Assembly (NCBI GenBank): GCA_049289035.1
Contig: JBAQIV010000048.1
Span: forward strand, 1 to 24,000
Length of the DNA: 24,000 nt
Reading direction: 5' to 3'
Source of the DNA: Candidatus Saccharimonadales bacterium
GTDB taxonomy: Bacteria > Patescibacteriota > Saccharimonadia > Saccharimonadales > Saccharimonadaceae
Both the position numbers and the translations under genes were made by a program. A model generated the notes under the pieces. That model did not search any database. It was given only the letters and a program-made list of their open reading frames with translations, and had not been told where the DNA came from. Below are positions 6,923 to 20,637 of the stretch, piece after piece (within the stretch, counting starts at the first letter, position 1; each line of letters opens with the position of its first letter).

Positions 6923-7063
6923 CTATACCATAGCCGCTTTGATACGGCGGATGCCCGCTGAACTGGCTTCTTCTTTGAGGATTTTGTACGTTTTGCCATT
7001 GGGGGTGCCGTCATCGTTCTGGGCCAACTGACCAGTGTGATCGACATGCGGGCCGCCGCAGAT
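6923..7063 (-). other. alaS: Conserved 3' continuation of the alaS reading frame beyond an in-frame TAA
   Basis: Same frame as alaS. After the TAA at 7064-7066 it translates as [46 protein letters not shown], ending at TAG 6923-6925. This contains the AlaRS editing-domain CGGxH zinc-ligand motif and the G(I/V)RRI(E/K)A motif. Confidence 0.8.
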
Positions 7064-8938
7064 TTAGAGACTCGCCAGGTGCTCACCTTCACCCATCTGG
7101 TAGACTTTCACCGTGTCACCATAGCGTTCGCCAAAGGGACCAATGGCGCCCATATCGAGCGCTGTCTGCGTGGGATATTCTTTGAATGTAACCGGTAAAT
7201 CGGCTGCTATCCAGCCATTGACCAGTGCTTCGGCACGCGCAATCTCCTCGGGCGTCATTTTACGGTCGAGGTTGAAGTCAAAACGCAGGCGCTCTTCGGT
7301 AATGTTACTCCCGTGCTGGCGCAGTTCTGGACCAAAAATTTCACGCAGAGCCGACTGCAGCAGGTGCGTCCCCGTGTGGTAACGTTTGTGTTGCATAGTG
7401 TGGCCGCCGAGGCCGCCTTTGAACACACCTTTTGCGGCGGTCTTACTCCGTTCACGCTGTTCGACCATTTTGGCGTCAAATTGTTCGCGCCAATTTGCTG
7501 GTAACTTGATGTCGCGCTTAAAGCACTCCTCGACACTAAGTTCAACCGGAAAACCGTACGTATCATAGAGCGTAAATAGAATCGCGCCAGCCGACGAATC
7601 ACATTCATCATCAGAAGGGGCCCGCCCCTTCTCGGGTGCCGCTGCTTCGCTGCGCGGCAGCCCGCCTTCCCCCGACTCATCGGCAGTAGCCGCTGAGTCG
7701 CCCGCGCTTCGCACGGGTGCGAATGCTTTTTCAAGCATTCGCAGGCCCTTCCTGAGCGTCTGGCGGAAGGTCTTCTCTTCCTTCACCAGCACAGCGATCA
7801 CGTTTTCACGGTTTTCTTTCACCTCAGGGAAATCTGCTTCGTATATGTCAGCGATGACCGGCACGATGGCCTCCAGAAAATTCTGCTCGATGCCCAGTTC
7901 AAACGCAAAGCGAATCGCCCGCCGCAGCAAACGGCGCATGACATAGCCTTGCTCTTTGTTGCTCGGCGTCACGCCGTCAACCGCAAGGAAGGTCGCCGCA
8001 CGCAGGTGGTCGGCAATCACGCGCATGCTTACAGTGTGGCTGTCGTAGTTTTTGCCACTTATGCTTTCGAGTTTCTCAACAATCGGCCACATGATCGATA
8101 TTTTAAACATGTCTGGACTATCTATCGCAGCCATTGCAATACGTTCCAACCCACCGCCAAAATCAATATTTTTGTTCGGTAAATGCTCAAAGCCTTTTTC
8201 GGTGCGGTAATACTGCATGAGGACGTTGTTACCGATCTCTACAAATCGGCCACAATCACAGTTCGGGTGGCATTTCTCTCCATATGAGGTGTCATGATCT
8301 ACAAAATCGAACTCATAGAATATCTCCGTGGACGGGCCGCCAGGTTCGCCGACAGGCATATCTTTGATCTTGCCGTTACGACACCACCAGTTTTTGCTTG
8401 CATCATAATAAAATACCCGTTCACCAACCTGCATACCTCTCTCGGCTGCATCTTGTTCGGATCCTAACTCGGCGTCGGTTGCCTCGACTCCAGCATCTTC
8501 GAAAAGTTTCAACCAAATATTTGCAGACTCGGTATCTTTGGGGATGTTAAAATCTTTGTCACCTATAAATGCCGTGACGTACAGCTTGTTTGGATCAAGC
8601 CCGATGATTTTAGTGTAAAATTCAAAGATCCACGGCAACTGCTCGGTCTTGAAGTAATCACCCAGCGACCAGTTACCCAACATCTCGAAAAATGTATCGT
8701 GCCGATTATCGCCTACTTCTTCTATATCTTGAACACGAATCACTGTCTGCGAATCAACCAGTCGCGCACCATGCGGATGTTTTTCGCCCAGCAGATAGGG
8801 CAGTAGCGGCTGCATACCACTGCCAGTAAACAGCGTCGTGGGGTCATTGTCTGGCACTAGGCGCGCCCGCGGGATCACCGCGTGGCCGCGTTCGGCAAAA
8901 AATTGCAAATAAGCTGTGCGTATGTCTTGTGCATTCAT
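7064..8938 (-). CDS. alaS: Alanine--tRNA ligase (class II), interrupted by an in-frame TAA before the last 46 codons; no C-Ala domain
   Basis: 624-aa ORF. The N-terminus MNAQDIRTAYLQFFAERGHAVIPRARLVPDNDPTTLFTGSGMQ is typical of AlaRS. LYDTYGFP and the editing-domain HTGTHLL (HxxxH) are present. The ORF ends ...GEGEHLASL-TAA exactly where the family has S-x-E-L-C-G-G-x-H. Confidence 0.9.
   Translation of the reverse strand: MNAQDIRTAYLQFFAERGHAVIPRARLVPDNDPTTLFTGSGMQPLLPYLLGEKHPHGARLVDSQTVIRVQDIEEVGDNRHDTFFEMLGNWSLGDYFKTEQLPWIFEFYTKIIGLDPNKLYVTAFIGDKDFNIPKDTESANIWLKLFEDAGVEATDAELGSEQDAAERGMQVGERVFYYDASKNWWCRNGKIKDMPVGEPGGPSTEIFYEFDFVDHDTSYGEKCHPNCDCGRFVEIGNNVLMQYYRTEKGFEHLPNKNIDFGGGLERIAMAAIDSPDMFKISIMWPIVEKLESISGKNYDSHTVSMRVIADHLRAATFLAVDGVTPSNKEQGYVMRRLLRRAIRFAFELGIEQNFLEAIVPVIADIYEADFPEVKENRENVIAVLVKEEKTFRQTLRKGLRMLEKAFAPVRSAGDSAATADESGEGGLPRSEAAAPEKGRAPSDDECDSSAGAILFTLYDTYGFPVELSVEECFKRDIKLPANWREQFDAKMVEQRERSKTAAKGVFKGGLGGHTMQHKRYHTGTHLLQSALREIFGPELRQHGSNITEERLRFDFNLDRKMTPEEIARAEALVNGWIAADLPVTFKEYPTQTALDMGAIGPFGERYGDTVKVYQMGEGEHLASL
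7613..7717. other. GC-rich, hairpin-dense in-frame extra segment inside alaS
   Basis: Consecutive hairpins: AGAAGGGGC/GCCCCTTCT (7613-7632); GGG-TGCCGC/GCGGCA-(G)-CCC (7634-7663); CGACTCA-x-CGGC/GCCG-x-TGAGTCG (7673-7700); CCCG/CGGG (7701-7717). The segment encodes the low-complexity peptide PVRSAGDSAATADESGEGGLPRSEAAAPEKGRAPS, which canonical AlaRS lacks. Confidence 0.6.
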
Positions 8939-8982
8939 ACTAGTCAGTATAACAGATACGGGCGACGCGCTCTAGACTGGTA

Positions 8983-9192
8983 TTACTGTTGGCCGGGAAT
9001 GTTTTTCTTTATGTCGTCAAATTTTTCTTGGATCTGGTCGACTTGCTTGTTGGCCGACTCGACAAATTTGTCATCGGCATCGCCAGGGATCATCTTGGTA
9101 ACTGCTTCGGCTTGCGCCTGAGCGTCATCGATAGTTTTTTCGAGTTTTTTGGTCGATTTGAATAGGTTTTTAAATGAGTCCAGTAGTGCCAC
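8983..9192 (-). CDS. Small hypothetical helical protein (69 aa)
   Basis: GTG start at 9192 is preceded by a perfect Shine-Dalgarno AAGGAGG (9203-9197) with a 4-nt spacer. A TATACT -10-like box lies at 9226-9221. The product is charged, helical-looking and K/D/E-rich, with no family I can name. Confidence 0.6.
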   Translation of the reverse strand: MALLDSFKNLFKSTKKLEKTIDDAQAQAEAVTKMIPGDADDKFVESANKQVDQIQEKFDDIKKNIPGQQ

Positions 9193-9236
9193 GTTACCTC
9201 CTTGTTATCGCTATGGCCTTAGTATACTCCAGCGCG

Positions 9237-10283
9237 TTAGACAATGATACCGCCGCCAAGCACTTCGTCGCCACGGTATAGTACCGCCGACTGACCCGCG
9301 GTCGCCGCCCGTTCCGCTTCCTCGAGCTGCAGGGAGTCTCCTTGCAAACGACACGGTAGCAACTGGCCCCGGTGGCGTAGGCGCGCTAGGAGTACCTCGC
9401 CCTCGCGCGGCGCATCATTGATCCAGTGTATACCTGTCAGCTCGACTGTATCTCGCCACATTGATTCGTCAGATAAGTCACGGCTCACAATCACACGGTT
9501 AGCTGCCATGTCTTTGCCGACCACATAATACGGCAAACCACCGCCCATGCCGAGACCATGCCGCTGGCCAAGCGTGTAGTAGATCGCCCCGTCGTGATAG
9601 CCTATGGCATGTCCTGTCGCTTTATCGATAATTTCACCTGGCTCCGTCGTGACGTACTGACTCAAAAATTCTTTGATCCCGACCGACCCGACGAAGCAAA
9701 TGCCCTGACTATCTTTTTTACGAGCCGTCGCCAAGCCTTTTGCTTCCGCGATGGCACGTACCTCTGTTTTTGTCAGCATCCCAAGTGGAAAGAGGGTCTT
9801 ACCGAGCGCCTCGGAGCTGATGCGGTAGAGGAAGTAGGTTTGGTCTTTGGTTTCATCGCGAGGACGAAGCAATACGGGGTTGGTTTGCTCATTACTTTTC
9901 CCTATTTTTGCATAGTGTCCCGTCGCAATCATATCGGCCCCATCGGCGAGTGCGGTATCGAGAAACAGTTTAAACTTCACCTCTTGGTTGCACATGATGT
10001 CAGGGTTGGGTGTGCGGCTGGCCTGGTATTCACTGATCATATAGTCGACGACCCGCTGTTTGTATTGGGTTTGAAAATCATAGACCTTGAGTGGTATACC
10101 TAGCTGCACCGCGACGCGCTTGGCGTCGGCCAGATCATCGGCCCACGGGCATCTCATACCAGGCAAATCTTGTGTCCAGTTTTTCATATAAATGCCCGTG
10201 ACGTCGTAGCCCTGGTCAACGAGCAGCGACGCCGTCACCGAGCTGTCGACCCCACCGCTCATGCCCACATACACACGCGTCAC
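9237..10283 (-). CDS. mnmA: tRNA-specific 2-thiouridylase MnmA
   Basis: 348-aa ORF with the PP-loop VGMSGGVDSSV at the N-terminus. ATGHYA, DQTYFLY and QGICFVG motifs are present. Length is typical for the family. Confidence 0.9.
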   Translation of the reverse strand: MTRVYVGMSGGVDSSVTASLLVDQGYDVTGIYMKNWTQDLPGMRCPWADDLADAKRVAVQLGIPLKVYDFQTQYKQRVVDYMISEYQASRTPNPDIMCNQEVKFKLFLDTALADGADMIATGHYAKIGKSNEQTNPVLLRPRDETKDQTYFLYRISSEALGKTLFPLGMLTKTEVRAIAEAKGLATARKKDSQGICFVGSVGIKEFLSQYVTTEPGEIIDKATGHAIGYHDGAIYYTLGQRHGLGMGGGLPYYVVGKDMAANRVIVSRDLSDESMWRDTVELTGIHWINDAPREGEVLLARLRHRGQLLPCRLQGDSLQLEEAERAATAGQSAVLYRGDEVLGGGIIV

Positions 10284-10888
10284 GTCACTGCCCCAAGCGT
10301 CACTGACAGCACGAGTATCTTAAACAGCTCGCTATAAGCCAGCCACCACCCAGTCATGGTCAGCCACCAGCGGTCAGTCCATTGTCGATCATGCGCCACC
10401 GGATGATTCATAATTGTCACGGCGTCGCCCAGGCGTGCCCCAAACTCAATCGATGCACGGCGTTGATGATACACGCTCGTCACCAAAATAATCTTTTTAA
10501 TGTTGTTTTTTTGTATAAACAGACCAGTGTTTACCGCATTTTCAGCCGTGGTTTGCGAAAATTCTTCTATCAAGATATCCGACTCTGGCACACCAAGCCC
10601 GAGCGCGTATTTTTTCATAGCTTCGGCATTACTTACCCCCGTTTTATCGGCAGCGGCACCAGAGAAAATCAGACGCCTACCCCAGCCATCTTTGTAGAGC
10701 CGTACGGCTTCGCCGGTACGCGCGGTTGTGTCACCACCGCTAATCGCTACTATGGCATCGGCTGCGGCACATGTACCTGGACGGGGCGCATCACACTGGG
10801 CCAGATCGTCGGGCCCCAAATAGCCAGGCAGTACAAATATCGTAAACCCAGCGGCAAGCGCAATACCGGCGACAAATACGCGTATCAT
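10280..10888 (-). CDS. DUF218 (YdcF/ElyC/SanA-like) domain membrane-anchored protein
   Basis: 202-aa ORF with an N-terminal TM helix. The DUF218 pattern is present: IVAISGGD...RLIFSGAAA...NAEAM...GVPESDILIEE.S..TAENA...ILVTSVYHQRRA. It has 4-nt overlaps with both neighbours. Confidence 0.8.
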   Translation of the reverse strand: MIRVFVAGIALAAGFTIFVLPGYLGPDDLAQCDAPRPGTCAAADAIVAISGGDTTARTGEAVRLYKDGWGRRLIFSGAAADKTGVSNAEAMKKYALGLGVPESDILIEEFSQTTAENAVNTGLFIQKNNIKKIILVTSVYHQRRASIEFGARLGDAVTIMNHPVAHDRQWTDRWWLTMTGWWLAYSELFKILVLSVTLGAVT

Positions 10889-12042
10889 CGCCCCCGCTCC
10901 TGTGCAATCACTTCAGATATGATAGTCGCGGCAGTGTCTATATCTGCCTCAGTGGTCGCACGGCCAAAACTACAGCGCACACTACCATCGGCAAGCGCAT
11001 CGGACATAGCAATTGCCGTCAGTACATGTGAGCGCGTGCCGCGATTGGCGGCGCAGGCCGAACCAGTCGCAACCTGTACGCCCCGTTGATCAAGCGCGTA
11101 GACCACTCGCTCACCATCAAGACCGGGCACCGAAAAATGCAATATGTGCGGGGCGCGGCGTTTCGGGTGGCCATTGATCACAATGTCAGCAATACGCTCA
11201 GACAGTGCACGCTGCAAACGATCGCGCAGACTAGTAAGTCGGTGACTTTCTGCCTTGCGCCCCGCCGTCGCCAGCATCAATGCTTCGGCAAATCCCACGA
11301 TGCCCGCCACATTTTCGGTCCCACCACGGACGCCTCGCTCTTGCCCGCCGCCATACATGAGCGGTGTCACCTGCATGCCGGTGCGCAGCCACAATAACCC
11401 CACGCCTTTTGGTCCATAGCATTTGGCCGATCCGAGTGTCATCATGTCGACACCCAGACGAGACACAGAGATATCGAGCATGCCAGGTGCTTGCGACGCA
11501 TCGGTATGAAGCCAAATAGGCAACACCTCGCCCATCGACAAACGACGTTGACGCTCGGTTTCAATAACAGCGGCAATATCGCGAAGCGACTGTACAGTGC
11601 CTAGTTCGTTATTGATCATACCCACACTGACAATCGTCGTCGTCGAAGTTATAGTCTGTTGAACTGCTTCCGGCGTGACAACACCCCGTTCATCGACCGG
11701 TATCCAGTCGACTTCACCTGCTTCCGCGGCACGCACCACGGCCGCATGTTCAATACGGCTGGTCGCAATACGCCCACCATAGTGAGCAACTATGCCACGC
11801 AGCGCTAGGTTGATCGATTCAGTCGAGCCAGAGGTAAGTATGATCTCAGTCGGACGCACCCCCAGCGCCATGGCTAGTTGTTGACGGGCTGTTTCATAGT
11901 CACTTCGCACGGTAGTCGCGGCACGATAGGCCGATGACGGATTATAAAACTGCTGCGAAAAATACGGCTCCATGCGAGCAAAAACCCGCGGGTCACACGG
12001 GGTAGCAGCTGCATAATCGAGGTAAATACTCCGCTCACCCAT
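10885..12042 (-). CDS. Cysteine desulfurase (class V aminotransferase, NifS/IscS/YrvO-like)
   Basis: 385-aa ORF with IYLDYAAATP at the N-terminus. TSGSTESINLA, HTDASQA, a PLP-lysine region SAKCYGPKGVG, GGGQERGVRGGTEN and an active-site loop ATGSACA are present. Confidence 0.85.
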   Translation of the reverse strand: MGERSIYLDYAAATPCDPRVFARMEPYFSQQFYNPSSAYRAATTVRSDYETARQQLAMALGVRPTEIILTSGSTESINLALRGIVAHYGGRIATSRIEHAAVVRAAEAGEVDWIPVDERGVVTPEAVQQTITSTTTIVSVGMINNELGTVQSLRDIAAVIETERQRRLSMGEVLPIWLHTDASQAPGMLDISVSRLGVDMMTLGSAKCYGPKGVGLLWLRTGMQVTPLMYGGGQERGVRGGTENVAGIVGFAEALMLATAGRKAESHRLTSLRDRLQRALSERIADIVINGHPKRRAPHILHFSVPGLDGERVVYALDQRGVQVATGSACAANRGTRSHVLTAIAMSDALADGSVRCSFGRATTEADIDTAATIISEVIAQERGR

Positions 12043-12045
12043 AGC

Positions 12046-12468
12046 TTATATTGTAGCAGGCTGAGCAGTGAGTGGCTGGCCCGAGGTGGGATCACGGCGA
12101 TACACGTTACGCATGACGCGTTCGTAATAGGCCTGCACTGCGGCCGAAAGGTTGTGTAATTCTTCGCCTTCGATAAACGAATACATACCGTTGTCTTGAA
12201 CTTTCAAGATGCCGCTACTGTGTAGCTCATACCGAGTCGTGCGCGATTGTTTTTTGTTGTGTTCGTCTTTCCACTCTTCGTACCACACCCAGGTGTGATC
12301 GTCGAGACGAAAAAATTCACGGCGATGACCAGCCGCAACGGGGCCAAATATCGTCGCGCCTTGTTCGCTCTCGATCTCTATCAACTGGCGTTTGGTCAAA
12401 TGTTTTGGCTGATAGGGTGTTGCCGTCTGACCAGTAAGTAGTGTTGTGATTTTCTGGAGCGCCTTCAT
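12046..12468 (-). CDS. Hypothetical protein (140 aa)
   Basis: ORF with a 4-nt overlap to the upstream ORF. Composition looks globular (WVWYEEWKDEH..., YYERVMRNVY). No recognisable motif. Confidence 0.6.
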   Translation of the reverse strand: MKALQKITTLLTGQTATPYQPKHLTKRQLIEIESEQGATIFGPVAAGHRREFFRLDDHTWVWYEEWKDEHNKKQSRTTRYELHSSGILKVQDNGMYSFIEGEELHNLSAAVQAYYERVMRNVYRRDPTSGQPLTAQPATI

Positions 12469-12884
12469 GACGACCTGCCTTTGTTGATTTGCTGGAGGTG
12501 CGTAACTCGGCAGGCTTCGAGAAATGCTGTAATTTGAGTAATACGCAGGCGGGCAGCTGTATCTGTCTCACCACTGGGTGACGTTTCCGTTGAGGCTTGA
12601 GCATGGCTAGCCGCTTCCTCTGTCATAGTACCTAACAATGCCGGGTCAAACGCATGGTCAGGACTGTAGAGGTTGATGGTTCGTTTTTCGAGGGCACGCT
12701 GCGTCAGAAACGGTGCAGCGTCGCTCGTACCATACGATTCATTGACGGCTTTGCGGGCCAGATCAACAGAAAATACCGACTCGGCACCCGCTGCCTCATC
12801 GGTATATATACGCTCTGGCGCACCACGGCCAGGAATCATAAATGTATTGGGGACGGTTGCTAAAGCCACTGTCAATCTCTCCAC
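12465..12884 (-). CDS. Hypothetical protein (139 aa; start uncertain)
   Basis: The longest ORF starts at GTG 12884. An alternative GTG at 12869 is preceded by GGAGAG with a 7-nt spacer. No recognisable motif. The C-terminal third is overlapped by another open frame (12317-12604), so the coding call is moderate. Confidence 0.5.
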   Translation of the reverse strand: MERLTVALATVPNTFMIPGRGAPERIYTDEAAGAESVFSVDLARKAVNESYGTSDAAPFLTQRALEKRTINLYSPDHAFDPALLGTMTEEAASHAQASTETSPSGETDTAARLRITQITAFLEACRVTHLQQINKGRSS

Positions 12885-12918
12885 AAATTAAATAGTTAGT
12901 GGGTGTTTATGGTGGTGT

Positions 12919-13815
12919 TTATTTGAGATGAAATAGATGCGTGGCACTAGCCTCTGTTGCACGCGAGAGCTCCTGGAGATTGATAGACTGGAGATTCGCA
13001 ATATGTTCGGCAACATGCTGTAATAGTGCTGGCTCATTGACTTTACCACGATGAGGCACGGGCGTCAAGTACGGCGCATCTGTTTCGAGTAGAATTTTTT
13101 CATAAGGGATAGCTCGGTAAACCTCTTGGCGGTCACGCGCAAACGTGGCGATACCGTTGACGCCTATCAGGAGGCCACGTGATAGCGCCGCTTCCATATT
13201 TGACAAATTGTCGGTAAAGCTGTGCAATACGCCCCTGAGGCCCTTGTATTGGTCGAAAATAGGCCAAAAATCATCCCAGACCGATGTGCGCCCCTCTAGG
13301 GACGATGCCTCACGCACATGGAAAATAACCGGCAAATTATGCTCGAGTGCTAGTTCAATCTGCGCATGAAGCATGTCGATCTGCTGCTCGCGCGGGGAGT
13401 TGTCGTAGAAGTAGTCGAGACCGATTTCACCGATTGCAACGATGCTCGATATTCGATGTGCGCCAGCCGCATCTGCAGCCTCTCTACTAAAAGTGACTCT
13501 GCTTCCCGCAGTAGGCGCACTGTTCTTTTCAGTGCGCCGGTCACTTTTACGTAGAGAGGCTGCAGATGCGGCTACTATTGCACGAATATCATCTATCGCT
13601 TCCAACCCTCGCACCGCATCATGCGGGTGTAATCCGACTGCCGCCCAAGCGTTGGCGTGCGCCGCGGCAAATTCAACCGCCTCGCGCGACGTCACCTCGT
13701 CTGTCCCGACCACAATCATACGCCCGACGCCAACAGCGAGCGCCCGCTCATACGCCCCCTCGCTGTCGAGGTAACTCGCTTCTTGGATATGACAATGTGT
13801 GTCGGTGAGTGTCAT
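12919..13815 (-). CDS. TatD-family metal-dependent hydrolase/DNase carrying a ~36-40-aa in-frame insertion
   Basis: 298-aa ORF with family motifs DTHCHI, GLHPH, AIGEIGLDY, VIFHVREA, GVLHSF and LETDAPYL. About 60 residues separate HP from IVAIGE, versus about 20 in E. coli YcfH as I remember it. Confidence 0.85.
   Translation of the reverse strand: MTLTDTHCHIQEASYLDSEGAYERALAVGVGRMIVVGTDEVTSREAVEFAAAHANAWAAVGLHPHDAVRGLEAIDDIRAIVAASAASLRKSDRRTEKNSAPTAGSRVTFSREAADAAGAHRISSIVAIGEIGLDYFYDNSPREQQIDMLHAQIELALEHNLPVIFHVREASSLEGRTSVWDDFWPIFDQYKGLRGVLHSFTDNLSNMEAALSRGLLIGVNGIATFARDRQEVYRAIPYEKILLETDAPYLTPVPHRGKVNEPALLQHVAEHIANLQSINLQELSRATEASATHLFHLK
13465..13573. repeat. 109-nt near-perfect palindromic element (33-bp outer stem enclosing two hairpins) inside the tatD-family CDS
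   Basis: 13465-13487 is the exact reverse complement of 13551-13573. After a bulged C at 13550, 13488-13497 pairs with 13540-13549. Inner hairpins lie at 13499-13511 and 13514-13538. Confidence 0.9.
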
Positions 13816-15296
13816 AGCTTTGGTGCGTGCGGGTCGGGCGTATGTAGGTATTTTTTTGGAAACAGTACGCCTTCGTACGGCGTAATGACCCCACCTTCAA
13901 AAATCTTTGTAATCGCAGCGCTCGTGTCAGGCAAAAATGGCGCCAGCAATTCAGCAACTTGCTGCAGCGTACCCGCCGCGTGCAACAAAATTTCTTCCAA
14001 GTGTGCGGCCGCTTCGGGGTCGGTGTCTTTGGTCTTTGCTACCGTCCACGGTTTGACGTCCTCGAGGTACTGGTTGAGCGAGCGTACCGTAAGCCAAACA
14101 TGATCGAGCGCTTTATTGAACTCAAGAGCATGCATCGCCTCATGATACGCGTCTGAGTCATGCTCAGCCTTGACGCCATCACCGACCACACCCTGCTGAT
14201 AGCGGTTGACCATGGCAACCACACGCTGCACGAGGTTGCCCAGTTCGTTACTTAGCTCGTTGTTGTAAGCAGTTTCAAACTTTTCATACGTAAAATCGCC
14301 GTCTTCGAGAGTCGGTATGTGACGCGCAAAGAAATAACGAAAGGCGTCGAGTCCGTATTGGTCGATTATCTCTGATGGGTCGATACCGTTGCCGAGGCTT
14401 TTCGATATCTTTGAGCCACCAATATTCACAAAACCATGCGCCAATATCTTTTTCGGCAGTGGCAACCCAAGACCAAGTAAGATCGCTGGCCAAATAATGG
14501 CGTGAAACCGCAATATATCTTTGCCGATCACCTGCACATCAGCTGGCCAAAATTCGTGCCACGTTTCACTCTGCGGATAGCCAAGTACCGTGATGTAGTT
14601 ACTGAGCGCATCTATCCAGACATAGATGACCTGCTCGGGGTCATCTGGCACCTGCACGCCCCAGCTCAGGCTCTTTTTTGGGCGGCTAATAGACACGTCG
14701 TGCACGCCGTCCTTGATCAGCTCAAGTATCTCATTGCGGCGAAATTCTGGCACAATTCGCATCGTACCCGACGTTATCGCGTCACGGATCTGGTCGGTAA
14801 AATCGCTGCAGCGTAAATAATAATTCTCCTCGCTCAACTGTTCGTATGGTTTTTGGTGGTTCGGACAAATACCGTTCGTTGACTCAACCTCTTTGTCGGT
14901 ATAAAACTGTTCACAGCCCGTGCAATACCAGCCCTGGTACGTATTTTTGTAGATATGCGGACGGAGTTGCTGCCATATATACTGCACTGCTGCGATATGC
15001 TGGGCATCGGTTGTACGAACAACATCGGTAAAGCTCGCGCCAACCTTCTCGGCCATTTGGCGAAAAGCCTGCGAAGACTGGTCCACAAACGTCTGCGGTG
15101 CTATACCGTGCTCGGCGGCTTTCATGGCATTTTTGTTGCCATGTTCGTCAGTGCCTATCTGATAGCGAACTTCTTGGCCGTTGACCCTATGATACCGCGC
15201 CCAAATGTCCGCCAGCAAATAGTCCATAGCATGCCCAATATGCGGTGCGCCGTTGACATAGGGAATAGCGGTCGTAATATATAATTTTTTGCTCAT
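13812..15296 (-). CDS. metG: Methionine--tRNA ligase (short form)
   Basis: Motifs YITTAIPYVNGAPHIGHA (HIGH) and KISKSLGN (KMSKS) are present. The ORF track starts at GTG 15302. I prefer ATG 15296 (MSKKLYITT...) because a TATAAT box at 15310-15305 would exclude the GTG from the transcript. The stop overlaps the tatD-family start by 4 nt. Confidence 0.92.
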   Translation of the reverse strand: MSKKLYITTAIPYVNGAPHIGHAMDYLLADIWARYHRVNGQEVRYQIGTDEHGNKNAMKAAEHGIAPQTFVDQSSQAFRQMAEKVGASFTDVVRTTDAQHIAAVQYIWQQLRPHIYKNTYQGWYCTGCEQFYTDKEVESTNGICPNHQKPYEQLSEENYYLRCSDFTDQIRDAITSGTMRIVPEFRRNEILELIKDGVHDVSISRPKKSLSWGVQVPDDPEQVIYVWIDALSNYITVLGYPQSETWHEFWPADVQVIGKDILRFHAIIWPAILLGLGLPLPKKILAHGFVNIGGSKISKSLGNGIDPSEIIDQYGLDAFRYFFARHIPTLEDGDFTYEKFETAYNNELSNELGNLVQRVVAMVNRYQQGVVGDGVKAEHDSDAYHEAMHALEFNKALDHVWLTVRSLNQYLEDVKPWTVAKTKDTDPEAAAHLEEILLHAAGTLQQVAELLAPFLPDTSAAITKIFEGGVITPYEGVLFPKKYLHTPDPHAPKL

Positions 15297-15329
15297 TGCC
15301 ACCTATTATATCCTATTTTCCTCTTTCCC

Positions 15330-15383
15330 CTGCTATAAGGTTCAACCCTGAGCAATATTGCTCAGGGTTGAACCTTATAGCAG
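15330..15383. repeat. Perfect 54-nt palindrome (two inverted 27-nt REP-like units) flanking the transposase gene
   Basis: CTGCTATAAGGTTCAACCCTGAGCAAT followed directly by its exact reverse complement. It abuts the transposase stop codon (15384-15386). Confidence 0.95.
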
Positions 15384-15983
15384 TTATCCGGCAAGCTGTT
15401 TTGACAGCAACTTTAGTTCGTCACGACGATCGACATAGTCATCGAGAAACTTCCTGTAATTACTCACATCCGGCAGCAGCTCCGTGTTAAGCCACGCGGC
15501 GTGTTTGTCGCCTAGGTAATAGCCAAGGCTCGACCATGGCCATCGTATATAATCTTCTGGATTGAGGTGGATGTACCGACTGATATGTGCAAATTGTGCG
15601 TCATCAGTCATTCGCACCGCCCGATATCGCTGCTGAAAAACAGTACCGACATGATGATATTTCCTGTTAAAATACATGCTATAGGCCGTCCCGATAGAAG
15701 TAAGAAGTTTTTTCATACCATCTTTTGAACTTTGATACACTAGCAAATGATAATGGTTCGGCATAAGACAATACGCCATAAGACTCACCTCTTTTGCATA
15801 ACACGGATACGGTTGACGGTTGGGCATTTTTGCGCCTTTTGGATCAAGATACCTTTTAAACAAGCTTAAGAATACCTCATAATCCTCATCGTCACGAAAA
15901 ACTTTTTGCTTTGATGCTCCCCTGTTATAAACATGGTAGTAAGAATCCTCAACATAGACTTTTGTCACATTTTTTGCAGGCAT
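15384..15983 (-). CDS. IS200/IS605-family HUH tyrosine (Y1) transposase, REP-associated (RAYT-like)
   Basis: HUH motif in YCLMPNHYHLLV. Also YYHVYNRG, YFNRKY..GTVFQQRY and the tyrosine-helix motif SRYIHLNP. I start at ATG 15983 (MPAKNV...). The 15 extra codons of the track ORF (to 16028) are read out of the flanking palindrome. Confidence 0.8.
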   Translation of the reverse strand: MPAKNVTKVYVEDSYYHVYNRGASKQKVFRDDEDYEVFLSLFKRYLDPKGAKMPNRQPYPCYAKEVSLMAYCLMPNHYHLLVYQSSKDGMKKLLTSIGTAYSMYFNRKYHHVGTVFQQRYRAVRMTDDAQFAHISRYIHLNPEDYIRWPWSSLGYYLGDKHAAWLNTELLPDVSNYRKFLDDYVDRRDELKLLSKQLAG

Positions 15984-16011
15984 ATATTCATCATACGCCT
16001 CTTCGCGATTT

Positions 16012-16069
16012 CCTGCTATAAGGTTCAACCCCGAGCAATAGTTTGCTCAGGGTTGAACCTTATAGCAGG
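16012..16069. repeat. 58-nt near-perfect palindrome, second copy of the REP-like doublet
   Basis: CCTGCTATAAGGTTCAACCCCGAGCAA-TAGT-TTGCTCAGGGTTGAACCTTATAGCAGG. It forms 27 bp with one C/A mismatch and uses the same 27-nt unit as 15330-15383. Confidence 0.95.
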
Positions 16070-16079
16070 TGAGTTATTG

Positions 16080-16703
16080 TTATTTACCGGCCAGTCGTAG
16101 CAAGATACGGCGCATGGCCGGACGGAAAAACAGCCAGCCGAGTGTCGTAACAAGGCCGATTGCAAAAAAGGCAATCCATGAAAACCGTCGCAAATACGGT
16201 TCGGCGGCTAGCCCAGCGAAGTACACACCTGCCGTAACCGTACCGGCCCACAGGACCGCCCCTGTAACATTGGCAACCAAAAACTTTGGATAATGCATCT
16301 TGAGTATGCCAGCGAGCGGCCCAGCAAATATGCGCAGCAGTGCGACAAACCGCCCAAAAAACACCGCCCACATACCGTGCCGGTGAAAAATCGCCTCTGA
16401 TAGCGCAATATTATCATCACTAAATTCATGCGGCAACTTTGTCTGCAGCACTCGCAACAAACGCCGCCCATAATGGTATCCGAACCAGTACCCCACTGAG
16501 TCGCCAATACTTGCGCCTACTATAGCAACAGACGCCACGACGACTGGGTTAATATGTGGATTATGTGCCGCTAAAAAGGCCGCGCTCATCAGGGTAATTT
16601 CACCTGGGAGCGGCACCCCAAAACTCTCGATCATGACCACACCAAAGACAAACGCGTAAATAAGATCAGGTGAAAGTGACTGCAAAAATTCCATGACATG
16701 CAT
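16080..16703 (-). CDS. DedA-family (SNARE-associated/VTT domain) membrane protein
   Basis: 207-aa polytopic membrane ORF with the DedA signature region MIESFGVPLPGEITL and FFGRFVALLRIFAGPLAGI. Confidence 0.85.
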   Translation of the reverse strand: MHVMEFLQSLSPDLIYAFVFGVVMIESFGVPLPGEITLMSAAFLAAHNPHINPVVVASVAIVGASIGDSVGYWFGYHYGRRLLRVLQTKLPHEFSDDNIALSEAIFHRHGMWAVFFGRFVALLRIFAGPLAGILKMHYPKFLVANVTGAVLWAGTVTAGVYFAGLAAEPYLRRFSWIAFFAIGLVTTLGWLFFRPAMRRILLRLAGK

Positions 16704-16709
16704 ACGTTT

Positions 16710-16738
16710 AGCCTACATTACAGGGGTATTGTTGTCAA
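16710..16738 (-). promoter_or_regulatory. Putative promoter for the DedA gene
   Basis: The minus strand reads TTGACA (16738-16733), a 17-nt spacer, TAGGCT (16715-16710), then 6 nt before the ATG at 16703. No Shine-Dalgarno sequence is present. Confidence 0.4.
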
Positions 16739-16740
16739 AA

Positions 16741-17490
16741 TTATGGTGTCATGACCGCTGCAACCATCATACGGCCCTGGCGATCTGAGCGATCCAGCTC
16801 AGTCGCGGCGCGGTGCGAGTAGTAACGCTCGTCGGTGTAGGTATTGATCGGGCTGACGTAGATACTGCCTGGCTTTACACCCAGCCGCTCGAATCGATCG
16901 CGGTTATGGCCGGGTATGTCGATGTGTATCATGCCGTCTGCTCCTGGTCGTTGCCAGGCCTGCCACTGCTCGGGGTGCGGCGGGGTAAAATACGTCATGC
17001 GATCGTGGTCGGGCTTGAGGCTCGGGCTCATCCAGACATGCCAGTCGCGCGGATCCGAACCCACTTCGTCGGCCACGCGTATGGCAAATTCTTCGATCAG
17101 CCCCGCCACACTGGCGTGGCGACCGAGGTGCAACACACCGAATAGATGTGCCACGGGGTCGTATACCACCGTCGCTACACAGTCTGCCACCGGCAGGGTG
17201 ATGACTTTGCCCGAGATCGTCGTAAACAGCGCATCACATTTGATCGCACCTGCTGTGTCTGCATCGACTCGCTCGATGTGCGTATAGGTATTTTCTGGTA
17301 GGTACGTGACAAAAACCTTTGCCCGCCCCTCCGGCTCAAAGCCATATTTTTTCAAAAAAACTTCTGTATTTTGCTCATGTTCTGGTAGCGATGGTTTGCC
17401 GCCACCCGCCGCAATCGACCCATCCTCGACGCTCGAAAACACCACGTGAACACCATGAGGAAAAGTGTCGATAGGTTTATATGTTTTCAT
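16741..17490 (-). CDS. pgeF: YfiH/PgeF-family (DUF152, laccase-domain) protein
   Basis: 249-aa ORF with LPVADCVATVVYDP and GVLHLGRHASVAGL, matching the family ADC...H.GW.G pattern. The tail is YYSHRAA...GRMMVAAV. Several canonical residues diverge, so confidence is moderate. Confidence 0.65.
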   Translation of the reverse strand: MKTYKPIDTFPHGVHVVFSSVEDGSIAAGGGKPSLPEHEQNTEVFLKKYGFEPEGRAKVFVTYLPENTYTHIERVDADTAGAIKCDALFTTISGKVITLPVADCVATVVYDPVAHLFGVLHLGRHASVAGLIEEFAIRVADEVGSDPRDWHVWMSPSLKPDHDRMTYFTPPHPEQWQAWQRPGADGMIHIDIPGHNRDRFERLGVKPGSIYVSPINTYTDERYYSHRAATELDRSDRQGRMMVAAVMTP

Positions 17491-17516
17491 ATAGTATTTA
17501 TCTTATCATCAAATGG

Positions 17517-17546
17517 TATGAGCCAGGATGTTACTCCTGGCTCATA
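17517..17546 (-). terminator. Putative terminator hairpin after the small membrane-protein gene
   Basis: Perfect 12-bp stem TATGAGCCAGGA / TCCTGGCTCATA with a 6-nt loop, 22 nt past the stop at 17568. On the minus strand it is followed by CCATTTGATGA, a weak U-tract. Confidence 0.5.
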
Positions 17547-17567
17547 CGTTCTGCTCGAGTGGAACTG

Positions 17568-17924
17568 TCACGCAGCGGCGCGTGCCGCGGTGATGGCACG
17601 CCGGACATACATGTCCGACCAACCACACACCAGCAGCATGACGGTCGCACCGACGACGAAGAAGATGGTATCGGTGGGCATGAGCTCAGACCTTCGCACC
17701 TGCATCGCAAGAGCGAAGACCTCCACCATGATGGAGCATGTGTACATACCCAACATGGGGGTACCGTACATGCCGAGCGTCTTGTGCGCGAGGTAGTCCT
17801 CGGCGTAGACGATACCCGTCTCGCCTGCAGACTCGGCCATGTGCGCGTGGTACAACGCCATTCCCACAGCCAGAGCCGCAACGAACAGCAACAGGCCGAT
17901 GGTTGTGATCTGGAAGGTGTTCAT
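17568..17924 (-). CDS. Small hypothetical membrane protein (118 aa, about 3 TM helices), compositionally foreign
   Basis: ATG 17924 is preceded by GAAAGG 7 nt upstream and by a consensus promoter. The hydrophobic segments are plausible TM helices. By my hand count about 95 of 118 codons end in G/C, unlike the flanking genes. Two other long frames overlap it, as expected in a GC-rich stretch. Confidence 0.55.
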   Translation of the reverse strand: MNTFQITTIGLLLFVAALAVGMALYHAHMAESAGETGIVYAEDYLAHKTLGMYGTPMLGMYTCSIMVEVFALAMQVRRSELMPTDTIFFVVGATVMLLVCGWSDMYVRRAITAARAAA

Positions 17925-17974
17925 TACTTGCCTTTCGAGTCAGCTGATGGAAACGTGCAGAACGTATCTTTACT

Positions 17975-18003
17975 ATAATATCACACTAAGATAAATTTGT
18001 CAA
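17975..18003 (-). promoter_or_regulatory. Near-consensus sigma70 promoter for the small membrane-protein gene
   Basis: The minus strand reads TTGACA (18003-17998), a 17-nt spacer, TATTAT (17980-17975). It overlaps the last codons and stop of rsmA and predicts a ~45-nt leader. Confidence 0.6.
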
Positions 18004-18852
18004 TGTTTGCCACTGTTCTATACTTAGTTCCTGCGCGCGGGCATCGGGAGAAATATTGGCTTTTTGCAATAGTGCCCCTGCGTCAGTTTTGCTGATAGCG
18101 AGGCCGGCGGCAAGCGAGCTACGCAGTTTTTTGCGGCGTTCGGCAAAACCGGCATGCGCGAGACGAAAAAAGGCTTTTTGCTGGTCGGTAGGCACGAGTG
18201 GCTGGTCGCGGCGGCGTAGTATGACCACTTGGCTATCAACTTTGGGTGGTGGCGTGAATTTGTCGCGCAGCACCACGGGCCCCAGACTGACGTCATGAAA
18301 CACCTGAGCCGACAGTGACAACAGGCTCATCTGCCCCGGACCAGCCGCGAGCCGCTCGGCCACTTCTTTTTGTACCAGTAGCACCGCAATTTTTGGCCTA
18401 ATAGGCCCTTCAGACACTTTACGAACGATTTTATTCGTGATGTAGTATGGAATATTGCCTACAACGATAAAGTCATCAGGCAGCCCCGTAAAGTCGTACG
18501 AGAGTATGTCCTGGTGTACCACCTCGAGATTTTTGCCTGGGAACTGCCCCAGCAACTTGCGTGCCAAATCCGCGTCATATTCTACCGCAATCACCCGTTC
18601 GGCCCGCGCCAACAGTACACTTGTCAAAGCGCCTTGTCCCGGGCCTATTTCCACTACTATAGAGGGGCTGGCAAACCCGCCCCGTGTGCCTTGCGAAGTA
18701 AATTCGCGACGCACACTCCCTGCCCCTAAAGGCTGCTCTACCGCTTGCTTTGTAGCCATAGGAAGCTGCTGTCTTGGGAGGGCACAATCGACAATCGCCT
18801 CGAGAACGAGGCGATCAGTGAGCCAATGCTGGCCGAGTTCTTTTTTGGGCAC
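17986..18852 (-). CDS. rsmA: 16S rRNA (adenine1518/1519-N6)-dimethyltransferase RsmA/KsgA carrying a ~34-aa in-frame insertion
   Basis: Motifs LGQHWL (family LGQNFL), SAM-binding VEIGPGQGALT, VVGNIPYYIT, FTPPPKVDS and FAERRKKL are present. 42 residues lie between AIVDCA and VEIGPG, versus about 8 in E. coli KsgA as I remember it. Confidence 0.88.
   Translation of the reverse strand: MPKKELGQHWLTDRLVLEAIVDCALPRQQLPMATKQAVEQPLGAGSVRREFTSQGTRGGFASPSIVVEIGPGQGALTSVLLARAERVIAVEYDADLARKLLGQFPGKNLEVVHQDILSYDFTGLPDDFIVVGNIPYYITNKIVRKVSEGPIRPKIAVLLVQKEVAERLAAGPGQMSLLSLSAQVFHDVSLGPVVLRDKFTPPPKVDSQVVILRRRDQPLVPTDQQKAFFRLAHAGFAERRKKLRSSLAAGLAISKTDAGALLQKANISPDARAQELSIEQWQTLTNLS
18655..18780. other. Extra in-frame segment of rsmA containing an imperfect 14-bp hairpin
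   Basis: The segment encodes LPRQQLPMATKQAVEQPLGAGSVRREFTSQGTRGGFASPSIV. Hairpin GTGTGCCTTGCGAA-GTAAA-TTCGCGACGCACAC lies at 18684-18716 (one mismatch, one G-T). A GGGGC...GCCCC pair lies at 18664-18683. Confidence 0.55.
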
Positions 18853-18854
18853 GA

Positions 18855-20225
18855 TTAGTGACTCGCGAGTATGTTGTAGGCAAACTGGATTCGTTTACTT
18901 TCGGCGCAAATACCGCAGCGTTCATAGCCATTTTGAAAGGCCCGCACCGCTCCTTCGACAGAAGACGAAGCACGAATCTGCCCTAGTACCGAAGCGTAGG
19001 AGCCACTCAATTCGTACCAGAGGAAATCTAGCTGTGTGTGAATACTATAAGGATCAGGCCGCGACAACAAGGCACTCTTGCGTCCGCCAGTCCATTGAGC
19101 GAGTCCATCACCTGTCGTGTTGAAGCCGTGCTCTTGCTGCAAGTTGCCCATAATACCGGCGGTTTGCTCGCGCGAGAGGCCCTTGCCCATCAAGAAATCC
19201 CAGGTAATCGACTCATTTTGGCTCGGTGTTGTGTAGGCCCCCTTAAACTTTGTGCCGATAACGATCACTTGTTTGACAGGTTCGACTGTCGTGACACTTG
19301 CTATAACCGTGCGTGAGACTTCGCGGCCGCCTTTCATCTCGATCTCATAGGTCACATTTTTCTTGCCGTCTGAGCCTTCGGTGCGTACTTCGCGCGTGCC
19401 GGCGTCTTTGTCGGCGTCTTTGACTTCTTCGGTGGTTTTGGGTATCACTTCTTCTTGCGTCAATGTCTGCTTGCCATCGCGCCAGATAGAAATAGACATG
19501 CCAGCAACCAACGGCGCGGTATCTGGCACTGACTGGCCGTCTTGAGCGCCGAGTTTGATACCTTTTTCGCGTAGCATTGCTCCAACAGTCGCCGCTTGAG
19601 AGCGAATATCGGTCGCTTTGCCAAATAGCGACACGTGGACGAGTTTCGCGCGTTTTACCGACAACTGCAAGCCCGCCCCACCATCACGGAGGGGGTCAGT
19701 CGAACGATCAAACGACGTGGTATCTTCAGGGTAAAGTGTCAGACCGGCTGTGTCCATGATCTTTTTAGGGCTCTGTTCGGCCGTCAATACTTGAATGCGC
19801 CGCAAACCATCATTGATCACAACCCCGCGAGCACGGTAAATATTGACGCGATAATTCTTTGCAACGAGCGTCGTGTCGACCCGTGGTTCGACATTGTCGA
19901 TCGACTCAACTATTATGCCGCCATCGCGCAAGGCACTACCGATAGTGTTTTTGGTCGTGATAAACGTCTTTTCTTCGCCTTGATCATACACTGTTATCAG
20001 ATGTCGAGAGCTACTGTCGTCGGGACTAGCTGCCGCTGCCATACGAGAAAAAGCTATGCCGCCAGCCGCAATACATAGCAAGGCAAAGCTCCAGAAGATG
20101 TGGTGGGAGCGTATATATGTCGTCACCTGTGTATATTTACTACTCACAATTAGCTTTGCTATTGTACCAAAAAGCTTACTTATCTGCAAATTCTCGGCGT
20201 ATGATAGCGCGCGACAACGGATCAA
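18855..20225 (-). CDS. Membrane-anchored cell-wall hydrolase: DUF348 repeats + G5 domain + C-terminal phage-tail-lysozyme-like domain (start uncertain)
   Basis: 456-aa ORF with a TM helix (IFWSFALLCIAAGGIAF). DUF348-like repeats and a G5-like region (REVRTEGSDGKKNVTYEIEMKGGREVSRTVI) follow. The C-terminal domain reads GIMGNLQQEHGFN...GLAQWTGGR...QLDFLWYEL. The ATG at 20225 overlaps the Nudix gene by 50 nt, so a downstream start (e.g. GTG 20147) is possible. Confidence 0.8.
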   Translation of the reverse strand: MIRCRALSYAENLQISKLFGTIAKLIVSSKYTQVTTYIRSHHIFWSFALLCIAAGGIAFSRMAAAASPDDSSSRHLITVYDQGEEKTFITTKNTIGSALRDGGIIVESIDNVEPRVDTTLVAKNYRVNIYRARGVVINDGLRRIQVLTAEQSPKKIMDTAGLTLYPEDTTSFDRSTDPLRDGGAGLQLSVKRAKLVHVSLFGKATDIRSQAATVGAMLREKGIKLGAQDGQSVPDTAPLVAGMSISIWRDGKQTLTQEEVIPKTTEEVKDADKDAGTREVRTEGSDGKKNVTYEIEMKGGREVSRTVIASVTTVEPVKQVIVIGTKFKGAYTTPSQNESITWDFLMGKGLSREQTAGIMGNLQQEHGFNTTGDGLAQWTGGRKSALLSRPDPYSIHTQLDFLWYELSGSYASVLGQIRASSSVEGAVRAFQNGYERCGICAESKRIQFAYNILASH

Positions 20226-20637
20226 TATCGTGCGGCAAGGCTCGTACTTTGTACCATTTGCGATCGATAATTTCTGCTCGACGATACCACGGCAATGCTG
20301 GCAAGGCGTGTTTTTTTGTCTGAAGGGTGTAAAAGATTAGGTCGCAGCGCAATGGGTACAGCGCCGGCTGCGTCGTCAGATACGTAAGTGCCGCGCGGTC
20401 AACCACAAGCCCTGTTTCTTCACGTACCTCGCGTATCGCCGCCCGTGATGGCGCTTCACCTCTGTTGACGCCCCCGCCGGGCAAGGTCCAGCGCTGGTGC
20501 GAAAACCATGTCTTGGTGAGCAGCACATAGCCGCCACGAGTTCGTAACTCTACCCGAGTACGCGGACGTGTGCGCGAGGAAACCACTGCAATCAATGGCA
20601 TCATGAGGAAATGTAGCCACTTACCAAGCCATTTCAT
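20176..20637 (-). CDS. Nudix hydrolase
   Basis: 153-aa ORF with a Nudix box GGGVNRGEAPSRAAIREVREETGL (GX5EX7REUXEEXGU). Its start overlaps the helicase stop by 4 nt. Confidence 0.8.
   Translation of the reverse strand: MKWLGKWLHFLMMPLIAVVSSRTRPRTRVELRTRGGYVLLTKTWFSHQRWTLPGGGVNRGEAPSRAAIREVREETGLVVDRAALTYLTTQPALYPLRCDLIFYTLQTKKHALPALPWYRRAEIIDRKWYKVRALPHDIDPLSRAIIRREFADK

Follow-up and report, generated by a model that had tools for sequence, protein, structure and literature searches.

The window analysed here (the whole stretch of 24,000 nucleotides (nt), from contig JBAQIV010000048.1) comes from a metagenome-assembled genome (MAG) of a Candidatus Saccharimonadales bacterium (Saccharibacteria/TM7) of the candidate phyla radiation (CPR), its TatD, AlaRS and RsmA proteins each matching an NCBI entry at 100% identity, and the subject of this analysis is three extra segments of 102-130 nt found in frame inside three of its genes, i.e. 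alaS, tatD and rsmA. The minus strand carries, in this order, alaS, mnmA, a DUF218 gene, a class-V aminotransferase gene, two small open reading frames (ORFs), tatD and metG, followed beyond metG by a Y1 transposase gene, a VTT-domain gene, a Cu-oxidase_4 gene, rsmA, a G5/lysozyme gene, a NUDIX gene and uvrD. The host genes, their inserts and the accompanying features are as follows, L numbers denoting the loci and contigs used in comparison and P numbers the proteins or protein clusters.

7064-8938, minus strand: alaS (alanyl-tRNA synthetase, AlaRS), host of insert 1 (Pfam tRNA-synt_2c, E = 9e-108; alignments with PDB structures and orthologues)
7591-7720, minus strand: alaS "type A" cassette, four consecutive hairpins, in frame (DNA fold; relatives)
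12919-13815, minus strand: tatD-family hydrolase gene, host of insert 2 (Pfam TatD_DNase, E = 2e-63; PDB alignment; orthologues; AlphaFold2 model)
13465-13573, no strand assigned: tatD cassette, 109-nt near-perfect Y-shaped palindrome (inverted repeat; fold; relatives)
17986-18852, minus strand: rsmA/ksgA (16S rRNA dimethyladenosine transferase), host of insert 3 (Pfam RrnaAD, E = 4e-46; PDB alignment; representatives; AlphaFold2 model)
18661-18780, minus strand: segment within which the rsmA insert lies, net 102 nt or 34 codons (gap versus L017 and L011)
13273-13299, minus strand: small second optional tatD indel of nine codons, SSLEGRTSV (orthologue alignment; indel census)
15330-16069, minus strand: Y1 transposase gene resembling the REP-associated tyrosine transposases (RAYT; REP, repetitive extragenic palindromic sequence) with two flanking palindromes (Pfam Y1_Tnp, E = 2.5e-11; context only, outside the inserts)

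All three inserts are lineage-specific, in frame and free of stop codons in the host frame, each being confined to one loop of its protein. The initial annotation had placed three such segments close to these positions, and both solved structures and orthologues agree with it, the coordinates having been refined in the process. Residues 71-123 of TatD correspond to just 16 residues of its solved homologues 6l25/2gzx, residues 24-65 of RsmA to seven residues of 6ifs, and residues 408-451 of AlaRS to eight residues of 9jc7. The TatD encoded here has 298 amino acids versus 250-258 for most Saccharimonadales TatD proteins, and AlaRS without the insert counts 626 amino acids in the orthologues. Of the indels recorded in a census against ten related loci, none but these three comprises 28 or more codons in the window, the remaining ones covering 6-23 codons and showing no structure.

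Concerning the fate of the inserts in the proteins, the AlphaFold2 models of TatD and RsmA are confident throughout except for the inserts, which are modelled as coil. For TatD, the mean predicted local distance difference test score (pLDDT) is 81.8, residues ~90-122 having a pLDDT of 45-52, and for RsmA the mean is 88.9, the coil of residues 25-64 having a pLDDT of 41-56. Since the inserts are in frame, stop-free and located in loops or linkers modelled as disordered coil on confident folds, they are most likely simply translated, as predicted disordered loops. Excision at the protein or RNA level was also considered; an intein, translational bypass and RNA-level excision were all rejected, the inserts being short, always a multiple of three and always stop-free. 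With 34-43 hydrophilic, low-complexity residues, they are far below the size of an intein (at least ~130 residues) and thus are not inteins, and a search of the three host proteins gave no Pfam intein match. An assembly artefact was rejected, too, because the cassettes recur in diverged form in independent assemblies and samples, as exemplified by P0004, present on 24 contigs, and by P0202, which has an inverted form.

The initial annotation had described all three inserts as rich in hairpins. Folding of the DNA against dinucleotide shuffles bears this out strongly for tatD (z = -12.7) and moderately for alaS (z = -5.25), rsmA being marginal (z = -2.4). When folding was scanned with GC correction over 6,942 windows, nothing in this stretch stood out except for the tatD palindrome and the RAYT repeats.

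The tatD insert, refined to positions 13465-13573, adds 37 codons in 109 nt. The Y is made up of an outer/inner stem of 33 bp and two hairpins, one of 9 bp capped by an A-rich loop and one of 4 bp capped by a GGGAA loop, and the insert translates as AASAASLRKSDRRTEKNSAPTAGSRVTFSREAADAA. The predicted folding energy is -55.9 kcal/mol versus -19.2 kcal/mol for the shuffles (z = -12.7 and -14.0 on the two strands). The palindrome is absent from most orthologues, close ones included; it occurs at the identical site in two further lineages, those of P0004 (L001; 65% TatD protein identity) and P0002 (L004; 72%), and all three copies share the Y fold, the z values being -12.7 for the window and -8.5 and -6.8 for the relatives.

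These copies show that the stems evolve by paired substitutions keeping the arms complementary. In the alignment of the three sequences, 94% of a 46-pair structure is paired, compared with 80% after shuffling and ~40% in a slid register, and 18 of the 46 pairs are altered on both sides, a value reached by none of 500 shuffles. The stems of the 9-bp hairpin, for example, are GGCGCACTG/CAGTGCGCC, GGAAAATCG/CGATTTTCC and GGCACATTG/CAATGTGCC in the three lineages, and the residues they encode vary (RRT..SAP, RKI..DFP and RHI..NVP), so that it is the pairing that has been conserved and not the peptide. The outer arms are only 51% identical between lineages, yet still paired. The sense strand has three G-U wobbles and four A-C mismatches (counted by hand from the alignment and the pair table), and this absence of a strand bias points to a constraint at the level of DNA, not to selection on mRNA. 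The 21-codon core is frozen at its synonymous sites. Among the codon pairs that specify the same residue, 43 of 46 are identical there, versus 318 of 560 elsewhere in tatD (p = 1.6e-7).

It should be mentioned that the same tatD loop holds other material in L007, the closest relative of the window. The insert present there (L007:3560-3670) is non-palindromic and unstructured (z = -0.95), consisting of short direct repeats with TTCGA[A/C]AT units, from which the loop appears to expand also by tandem duplication. The nine-codon indel at 13273-13299 is patchy among the orthologues and contains the heptamer CGCACAT, i.e. the reverse complement of the host heptamer ATGTGCG located 22 nt upstream, which may be a hint of an origin by fold-back or template switching.

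The alaS cassette occupies positions 7591-7720, of which 7595-7720 (126 nt) represent the unit that is found inverted in other lineages. Its approximate translation, PVRSAGDS...SDDECDS, lies in the linker that joins the catalytic to the tRNA-recognition domain, and the cassette folds at -38.2 kcal/mol versus -24.7 kcal/mol for the shuffles (z = -5.25), albeit without being an outlier in the GC-corrected scan. Instead of a decayed single palindrome, a decayed copy being one of the possibilities named in the initial annotation, it proved to be a conserved string of four hairpins with compensatory changes in the stems (TGCCGC/GCGGCA, TGCAAC/GTTGCA and TGCAAGT/ACTTGCA; GACTCA/TGAGTC versus GAATCA/TGATTC). 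This type A cassette has the same orientation as in the window in L008/L009 and L011, and it is inverted at the same alaS site in L001, where the plus strand of 7595-7720 matches the L001 sense strand at 107 of 123 positions (87% identity) versus 66% identity for the rest of alaS. Both orientations are open reading frames. The inverted form is also present in the independent protein cluster P0202, which means that the inversion is not an assembly artefact, and nothing convincing was found among flanking inverted repeats that could have mediated it.

The linker between FRQTLRKG and LYDTYGFP is a hot spot; among the orthologues it is empty or filled with type A, with an unrelated long palindrome designated type C (L007 and L014; z = -7.1), with a type B cassette or with other sequences, such as the unstructured insert of L016 (z = -0.7). 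The loci L008 (type A), L013 (empty) and L014 (type C) share ~95% identical DNA outside a tract of ~350 nt around the site, in which the identity falls to 31-82%, and the AlaRS proteins P0123 and P0137 are ~98% identical outside a tract of ~90 residues around the insert site. The type C cassettes of L014 and L007 are 88-97% identical, compared with 60-88% for the rest of those alaS genes. Such polymorphism of presence and of cassette type with mosaic flanks indicates exchange by recombination at the homologous alaS site. The presence/absence polymorphism among close relatives, named at the outset as a way to judge the idea, is thus there for alaS (P0123/P0137) as well as for rsmA, where the gap versus L017 documents it.

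Three further observations concern alaS itself. The ORF stops at an in-frame TAA (7064-7066) at the position where every orthologue has a glutamate (SL-E-ICGGPHV), and the 46 codons beyond it, up to a TAG at 6923-6925, still encode the conserved C-terminus (window 6923-7066, minus strand); the TAA may have arisen by nonsense mutation only very recently, may be read through or may be an error of the consensus. The product name given by NCBI to the AlaRS of the window is "alanine--tRNA ligase-related protein". Finally, residues 129-198 contain ~35 further extra residues in comparison with solved bacterial structures; this segment is kept in all Saccharimonadales orthologues and thus characterises the whole clade instead of being an optional cassette.

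The rsmA insert, positioned between helix 1 and the strand binding S-adenosylmethionine, is defined by a clean gap of 102 nt versus the close relative L017 (encoding P0242) and versus L011. The 34 codons are missing from L017 and nearly all representatives, a few RsmA representatives having different inserts, placed either in this loop or in another one. Of the hairpins recognised in the rsmA insert, two are short and clear and a third is weaker, the predicted energy being -23.8 versus -17.4 kcal/mol (z = -2.4; two of 200 shuffles fold as well); folded alone, the insert has a z of -1.2, and it is not an outlier in the GC-corrected scan. No relative of it was found in a protein search that is a weak test; run with the concatenated stop-free translations of all three inserts in order to find other host proteins, it returned only the RsmA and TatD of the window, missing both AlaRS and the known TatD relatives, and is therefore too insensitive to be taken as a negative.

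As far as kinship between the inserts is concerned, the initial annotation had considered those in alaS and rsmA as possible older, decayed copies or as different families and had pointed to a weak motif shared at the same end. The motif is at chance level (z < 3 in local alignment), and nhmmer profiles of the alaS and tatD cassettes miss rsmA. All-versus-all local alignment with shuffled controls revealed similarity solely among the tatD copies and among the alaS type A copies, none being detected across families, i.e. between the alaS, rsmA and tatD inserts, the insert in mnmA of L001 and the RAYT repeats. The three inserts are thus mutually unrelated, which speaks against the idea of decayed copies.

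The RAYT-like gene had been recognised, together with the dissimilarity of its repeats to the inserts, already from the sequence, and both points hold, given the Y1_Tnp match and the lack of similarity just described. The ORF (15384-16028) is accompanied by palindromes of 54-58 nt at 15330-15383 and 16012-16069, built of CTGCTATAAGGTTCAACCCTGAGCAAT and its complement, the first copy being perfect and without a loop; no other copy is present elsewhere in the window. An Rfam search of the whole window, judged by E-value, gave nothing at the inserts and two sub-threshold matches, both at the RAYT palindromes. At the syntenic locus L011, tblastn found no RAYT gene and no VTT-domain gene, metG adjoining the Cu-oxidase_4 gene there.

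Dispersed copies were looked for by scans of genomes, metagenomes and viral contigs that required exact matches of 20-26 bases, so that diverged copies would escape, and by nhmmer profiles of the tatD and alaS cassettes over 179 kb (the window and related loci), the latter yielding no further copy. Among the GTDB species genomes, the tatD core matched only the tatD of the L001 genome plus one chance match, and it was not found in metagenome or viral contigs. The type A hairpin junction gave a single real match in the metagenomes, again in alaS, on a 667-kb Saccharibacteria contig (L011) of which it is the sole copy. The other matches of these scans are due to chance or terminator-like (L006, L010 and L012). 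No terminal signals or parent insertion sequence could be identified for the cassettes, whose inverted ends are supplied by the palindromy of the whole element. One candidate signal was examined and not used. The 9-mer CGGCTGGCG stands, on the minus strand, at the sense-3' junction of both the alaS (7585-7593) and tatD (13461-13469) inserts and also beside the tatD and alaS cassettes of relatives, and its three exact copies in the window compare with ~0.2 expected for a random 9-mer in 48,000 positions (hand arithmetic); it is, however, partly host sequence in alaS (GCT GGC GCG, encoding AGA, which is found also beside the inverted copy), and the third copy (20060-20068) lies in a signal peptide.

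A different picture is offered by the type B cassette in alaS of L015 (L015:1350-1437), consisting of two hairpin units, GTCATCCTGAACTTGTTTCAGGATC and GTCATCCCGGGCTTGATCCGGGATC, in inverted relative orientation. The 25-mer GTCATCCTGAACTTGTTTCAGGATC occurs exactly in 22 IMG/VR contigs (L018-L039) with a GC content of 28-71%, often beside sister units of the form GTCAT-stem-loop-stem-ATC, and its translation gives recurring peptides (VILNLFQDL, HPELVSGS and DPETSSG); no paper naming this 25-nt hairpin was found. The type B unit being truly dispersed, mobile hairpin repeats can land at this alaS coding site. Type B supports the idea of the initial annotation in spirit for the relatives, but not for the three inserts of the window. 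Relatives also have inserts in mnmA. In L001 (L001:14001-14074) this gene carries its own in-frame palindromic insert of ~22 codons with purine/pyrimidine-rich arms (z = -5.7), which the mnmA of the window is without, the same loop containing other, unstructured inserts in L008 and L013.

Taken together, a given site may, in related genomes, be empty, hold the cassette in one orientation or the other, or hold a palindromic cassette unrelated to it; cassettes of different lineages resemble one another more closely than do the genes that host them, and the flanks of the cassettes are mosaic. The interpretation we prefer, with a probability of roughly 0.5, is that the inserts represent three unrelated optional cassettes of hairpin DNA, each tied to a single permissive site of one housekeeping gene; recombination would spread them, and their translation would give disordered loops. 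The best reading is of a phenomenon resembling the Rickettsia palindromic elements (RPEs), not of a demonstrated transposing multi-copy family. The initial annotation had proposed small palindromic elements colonising coding sequence; discrete hairpin DNA residing in frame in permissive loops is indeed what is observed, but since the limited scans met the tatD and alaS cassettes in the same gene only, without a second locus, the evidence extends to allele exchange and one inversion and not to transposition.

According to the preferred interpretation, recombination at the homologous site, in the way of gene conversion or "homing-like", would carry the cassettes from one allele to another, probably with the help of natural DNA uptake by these epibionts, and on at least one occasion a cassette would have been flipped in situ or have re-entered the site in reverse orientation. 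The hairpins may be kept at the DNA level by template switching or arm-to-arm conversion of quasi-palindromes, or else by selection for a foldable single strand. The cassettes would then be selfish or neutral passengers creating new surface loops rather than adaptive domains, persisting because an essential gene can lose them only by a deletion that is precise and in frame. Candidates for their first origin are the insertion of a mobile hairpin repeat, as with type B in alaS of relatives, and fold-back copying of local sequence. It is possible, although we advance it only tentatively, that the essential genes of Saccharibacteria house a class of single-copy, site-locked selfish palindromic cassettes that do not transpose, spread by endonuclease-free conversion or in a homing-like way—perhaps via hairpin-induced breaks—flip their orientation with the frame kept open and retain their fold by concerted evolution of the arms. 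In a bolder variant, the conserved tatD core would be a functional RNA or single-stranded DNA motif.

Several points weigh against the preferred interpretation. The inverted copy of type A cannot come from simple homologous recombination, so that a second mechanism is needed. The failure to find a second locus for the tatD or alaS cassettes comes from exact-pattern scans that did not include the whole source genome, and no target-site duplications (TSDs) are convincing, ATTCG at alaS and CTAT at rsmA both being short and ambiguous. For the rsmA insert, with its marginal structure and without any known relative, membership in the same class is a matter of inference. Only three copies of the tatD palindrome and five copies of alaS type A underlie the analysis. 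Lastly, the frozen synonymous sites of the tatD core could mean a function and not a passenger.

The idea that the inserts are ordinary non-autonomous repeats of the type of miniature transposable elements with inverted repeats (MITEs), RPEs or REP doublets forming hairpins (REPINs), with many dispersed copies that landed in frame in tolerant loops and were missed by the searches, seems unlikely to us. It does draw on the size, the whole-element palindromy and the in-frame residence, all matching the RPEs (PMC10969869), on the RAYT with its own palindromes in the window, on the unrelated palindromes at the same alaS site in different lineages, on type B as a doublet of the hairpin unit known exactly from the 22 viral contigs, and on the two orientations of type A, which suggest orientation-independent insertion. 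The search results argue the other way, given that the tatD core matches only tatD in one species-representative genome and nothing in metagenomes or viral contigs, that the type A pattern was met once, in alaS, on the 667-kb contig, and that nhmmer detected no extra copy in 179 kb of related DNA; moreover, TSDs could not be made out, and the cassettes do not resemble the RAYT repeats.

Distinctly improbable, in our opinion, is a functional motif, by which the tatD element and perhaps also the alaS hairpins would be a structure of the mRNA by which its stability, its processing or the speed of translation is controlled, or else a folded single strand of DNA to which a protein binds, in either case kept by selection on structure. 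The classical pattern is there, with conserved junction and loops and covarying stems; the amino acids vary while the 9-bp hairpin stays paired, the synonymous sites of the core are frozen, and the element is better conserved than its host gene. Yet there is no Rfam match, G-U and A-C are equally common on the sense strand, arguing against selection on the mRNA strand, and the element is absent from most orthologues, even close ones; unrelated cassettes or nothing at the same site are hard to square with a needed regulation, and pairing combined with the amino-acid constraint can also freeze synonymous sites. Very improbable, too, is a reading that concerns mainly rsmA and partly alaS, namely that fast-evolving CPR proteins have undergone ordinary loop expansions, the hairpins being incidental to GC-rich low-complexity sequence. 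The marginal fold of rsmA (z = -2.4, or -1.2 alone), the absence of the alaS and rsmA inserts from the outliers of the GC-corrected scan, the unstructured inserts at the same loops of relatives (tatD of L007, alaS of L016 and mnmA of L013) and the many different loop inserts of RsmA representatives are all in keeping with it, but it fails on the tatD palindrome (z = -12.7) with its covariation, on the compensatory changes and the inversion at 87% identity in alaS, and on the type C palindrome (z = -7.1).

Two observations lie outside the inserts. Between the Cu-oxidase_4 gene and rsmA there is a gap of ~500 nt (17491-17985) without a Pfam-annotated ORF (a plus-strand ORF of 165 amino acids has no match), where a perfect 13-bp hairpin is located at 17516-17547 and the predicted folding is above average. 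In addition, the uvrD/PcrA gene of the close relative L017 (L017:1018-4227) encodes 1069 amino acids with an intein (Intein_splicing match), and that of the window (20634-22763) 709 amino acids without one, the L017 intein being another optional insertion in the housekeeping genes of the clade.

With regard to known systems, the cassettes share with homing introns and inteins their being site-locked, optional and patchy in conserved genes with co-converted flanks; they differ in having no endonuclease and no splicing motifs and in being seemingly translated and retained. The GC clusters of yeast mitochondria, e.g. in var1, are reportedly optional, in-frame, palindromic GC-rich inserts at a fixed site of a protein gene, passed on by gene conversion to alleles without the insert, as is said to have been worked out in the Butow laboratory in the 1980s. 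Those clusters are organellar, much shorter and members of a dispersed family. REP and REPIN sequences with their RAYT, associated with the names of Nunvar et al. (2010) and Bertels and Rainey (2011), are said to be extragenic and high-copy and to share sequence with the repeats flanking the RAYT. Hairpin units, doublets of ~100 nt—type B being a doublet of inverted units—and a RAYT with its own palindromes recall that system; the inserts of the window, however, are genic, single and have nothing in common with the RAYT repeats, and the RAYT palindrome, confined to 15330-15383 and 16012-16069 and without similarity to any insert, gives no ground for assigning them to it. The REP super-families are treated in PMC3733652.

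Long hairpins in translated genes, with arms kept complementary and with gain and loss between species, are known from the mitochondrial coding palindromes of Nematomorpha, for which arm conversion by template switching and a "parasitic" character have been proposed (PMC6649704). Paired changes of the arms are found here as well (18 of 46 pairs in tatD; the alaS hairpins), but in Nematomorpha the repeats are perfect and both arms encode conserved protein, whereas here the arms are not ancestral protein but imperfect extra loop segments exchanged between lineages.

In full-text literature, no description of such inserts in Saccharibacteria or CPR was found. Protein-coding palindromes have been regarded as peculiar to Rickettsia ("a unique but recurrent feature") and to a few organelles. 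The cassettes are islands of divergence and length variation in alaS, rsmA and tatD, i.e. in genes serving the phylogeny and quality control of CPR MAGs, and their being site-locked and selfish would, if true, be a selfish mode not described for bacteria.

The closest parallel is provided by the RPEs, palindromes of ~100-150 nt that are inserted, with the reading frame kept, into housekeeping genes unrelated to each other (Ogata et al. 2000 Science 290:347; Ogata et al. 2002 Genome Res 12:808; summarised in PMC10969869). The likeness covers the size, the palindromy (a stable palindrome is found in tatD and alaS, marginally in rsmA), the in-frame residence in housekeeping genes, the translation, the tolerant positions in the fold, the host-dependent bacterium with a reduced genome and the presence varying between species. 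RPEs are nevertheless multi-copy elements scattered over many unrelated loci (RPE-1 has 44 copies in R. conorii) and decay with time (PMC10969869), whereas the cassettes described here occur, within the reach of the limited exact-pattern scans and of nhmmer over 179 kb, at one site of one gene each, only same-gene copies having been detected, which does not agree with an RPE or MITE family. The compensatory pairing, the allele exchange with mosaic flanks, the one in-place inversion and the phylum (Patescibacteria/CPR) set them further apart. The same outcome in CPR, another lineage of host-dependent bacteria with reduced genomes, points to a general route by which essential enzymes acquire new surface loops from hairpin DNA. 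What lies outside the RPE picture is that the cassettes are single-site, that their stems covary, that one was inverted in place with the frame open and that alleles were swapped among near-identical genes; these features make the upkeep and spread of palindromes—by template-switch conversion, selection or transposition—a testable matter.

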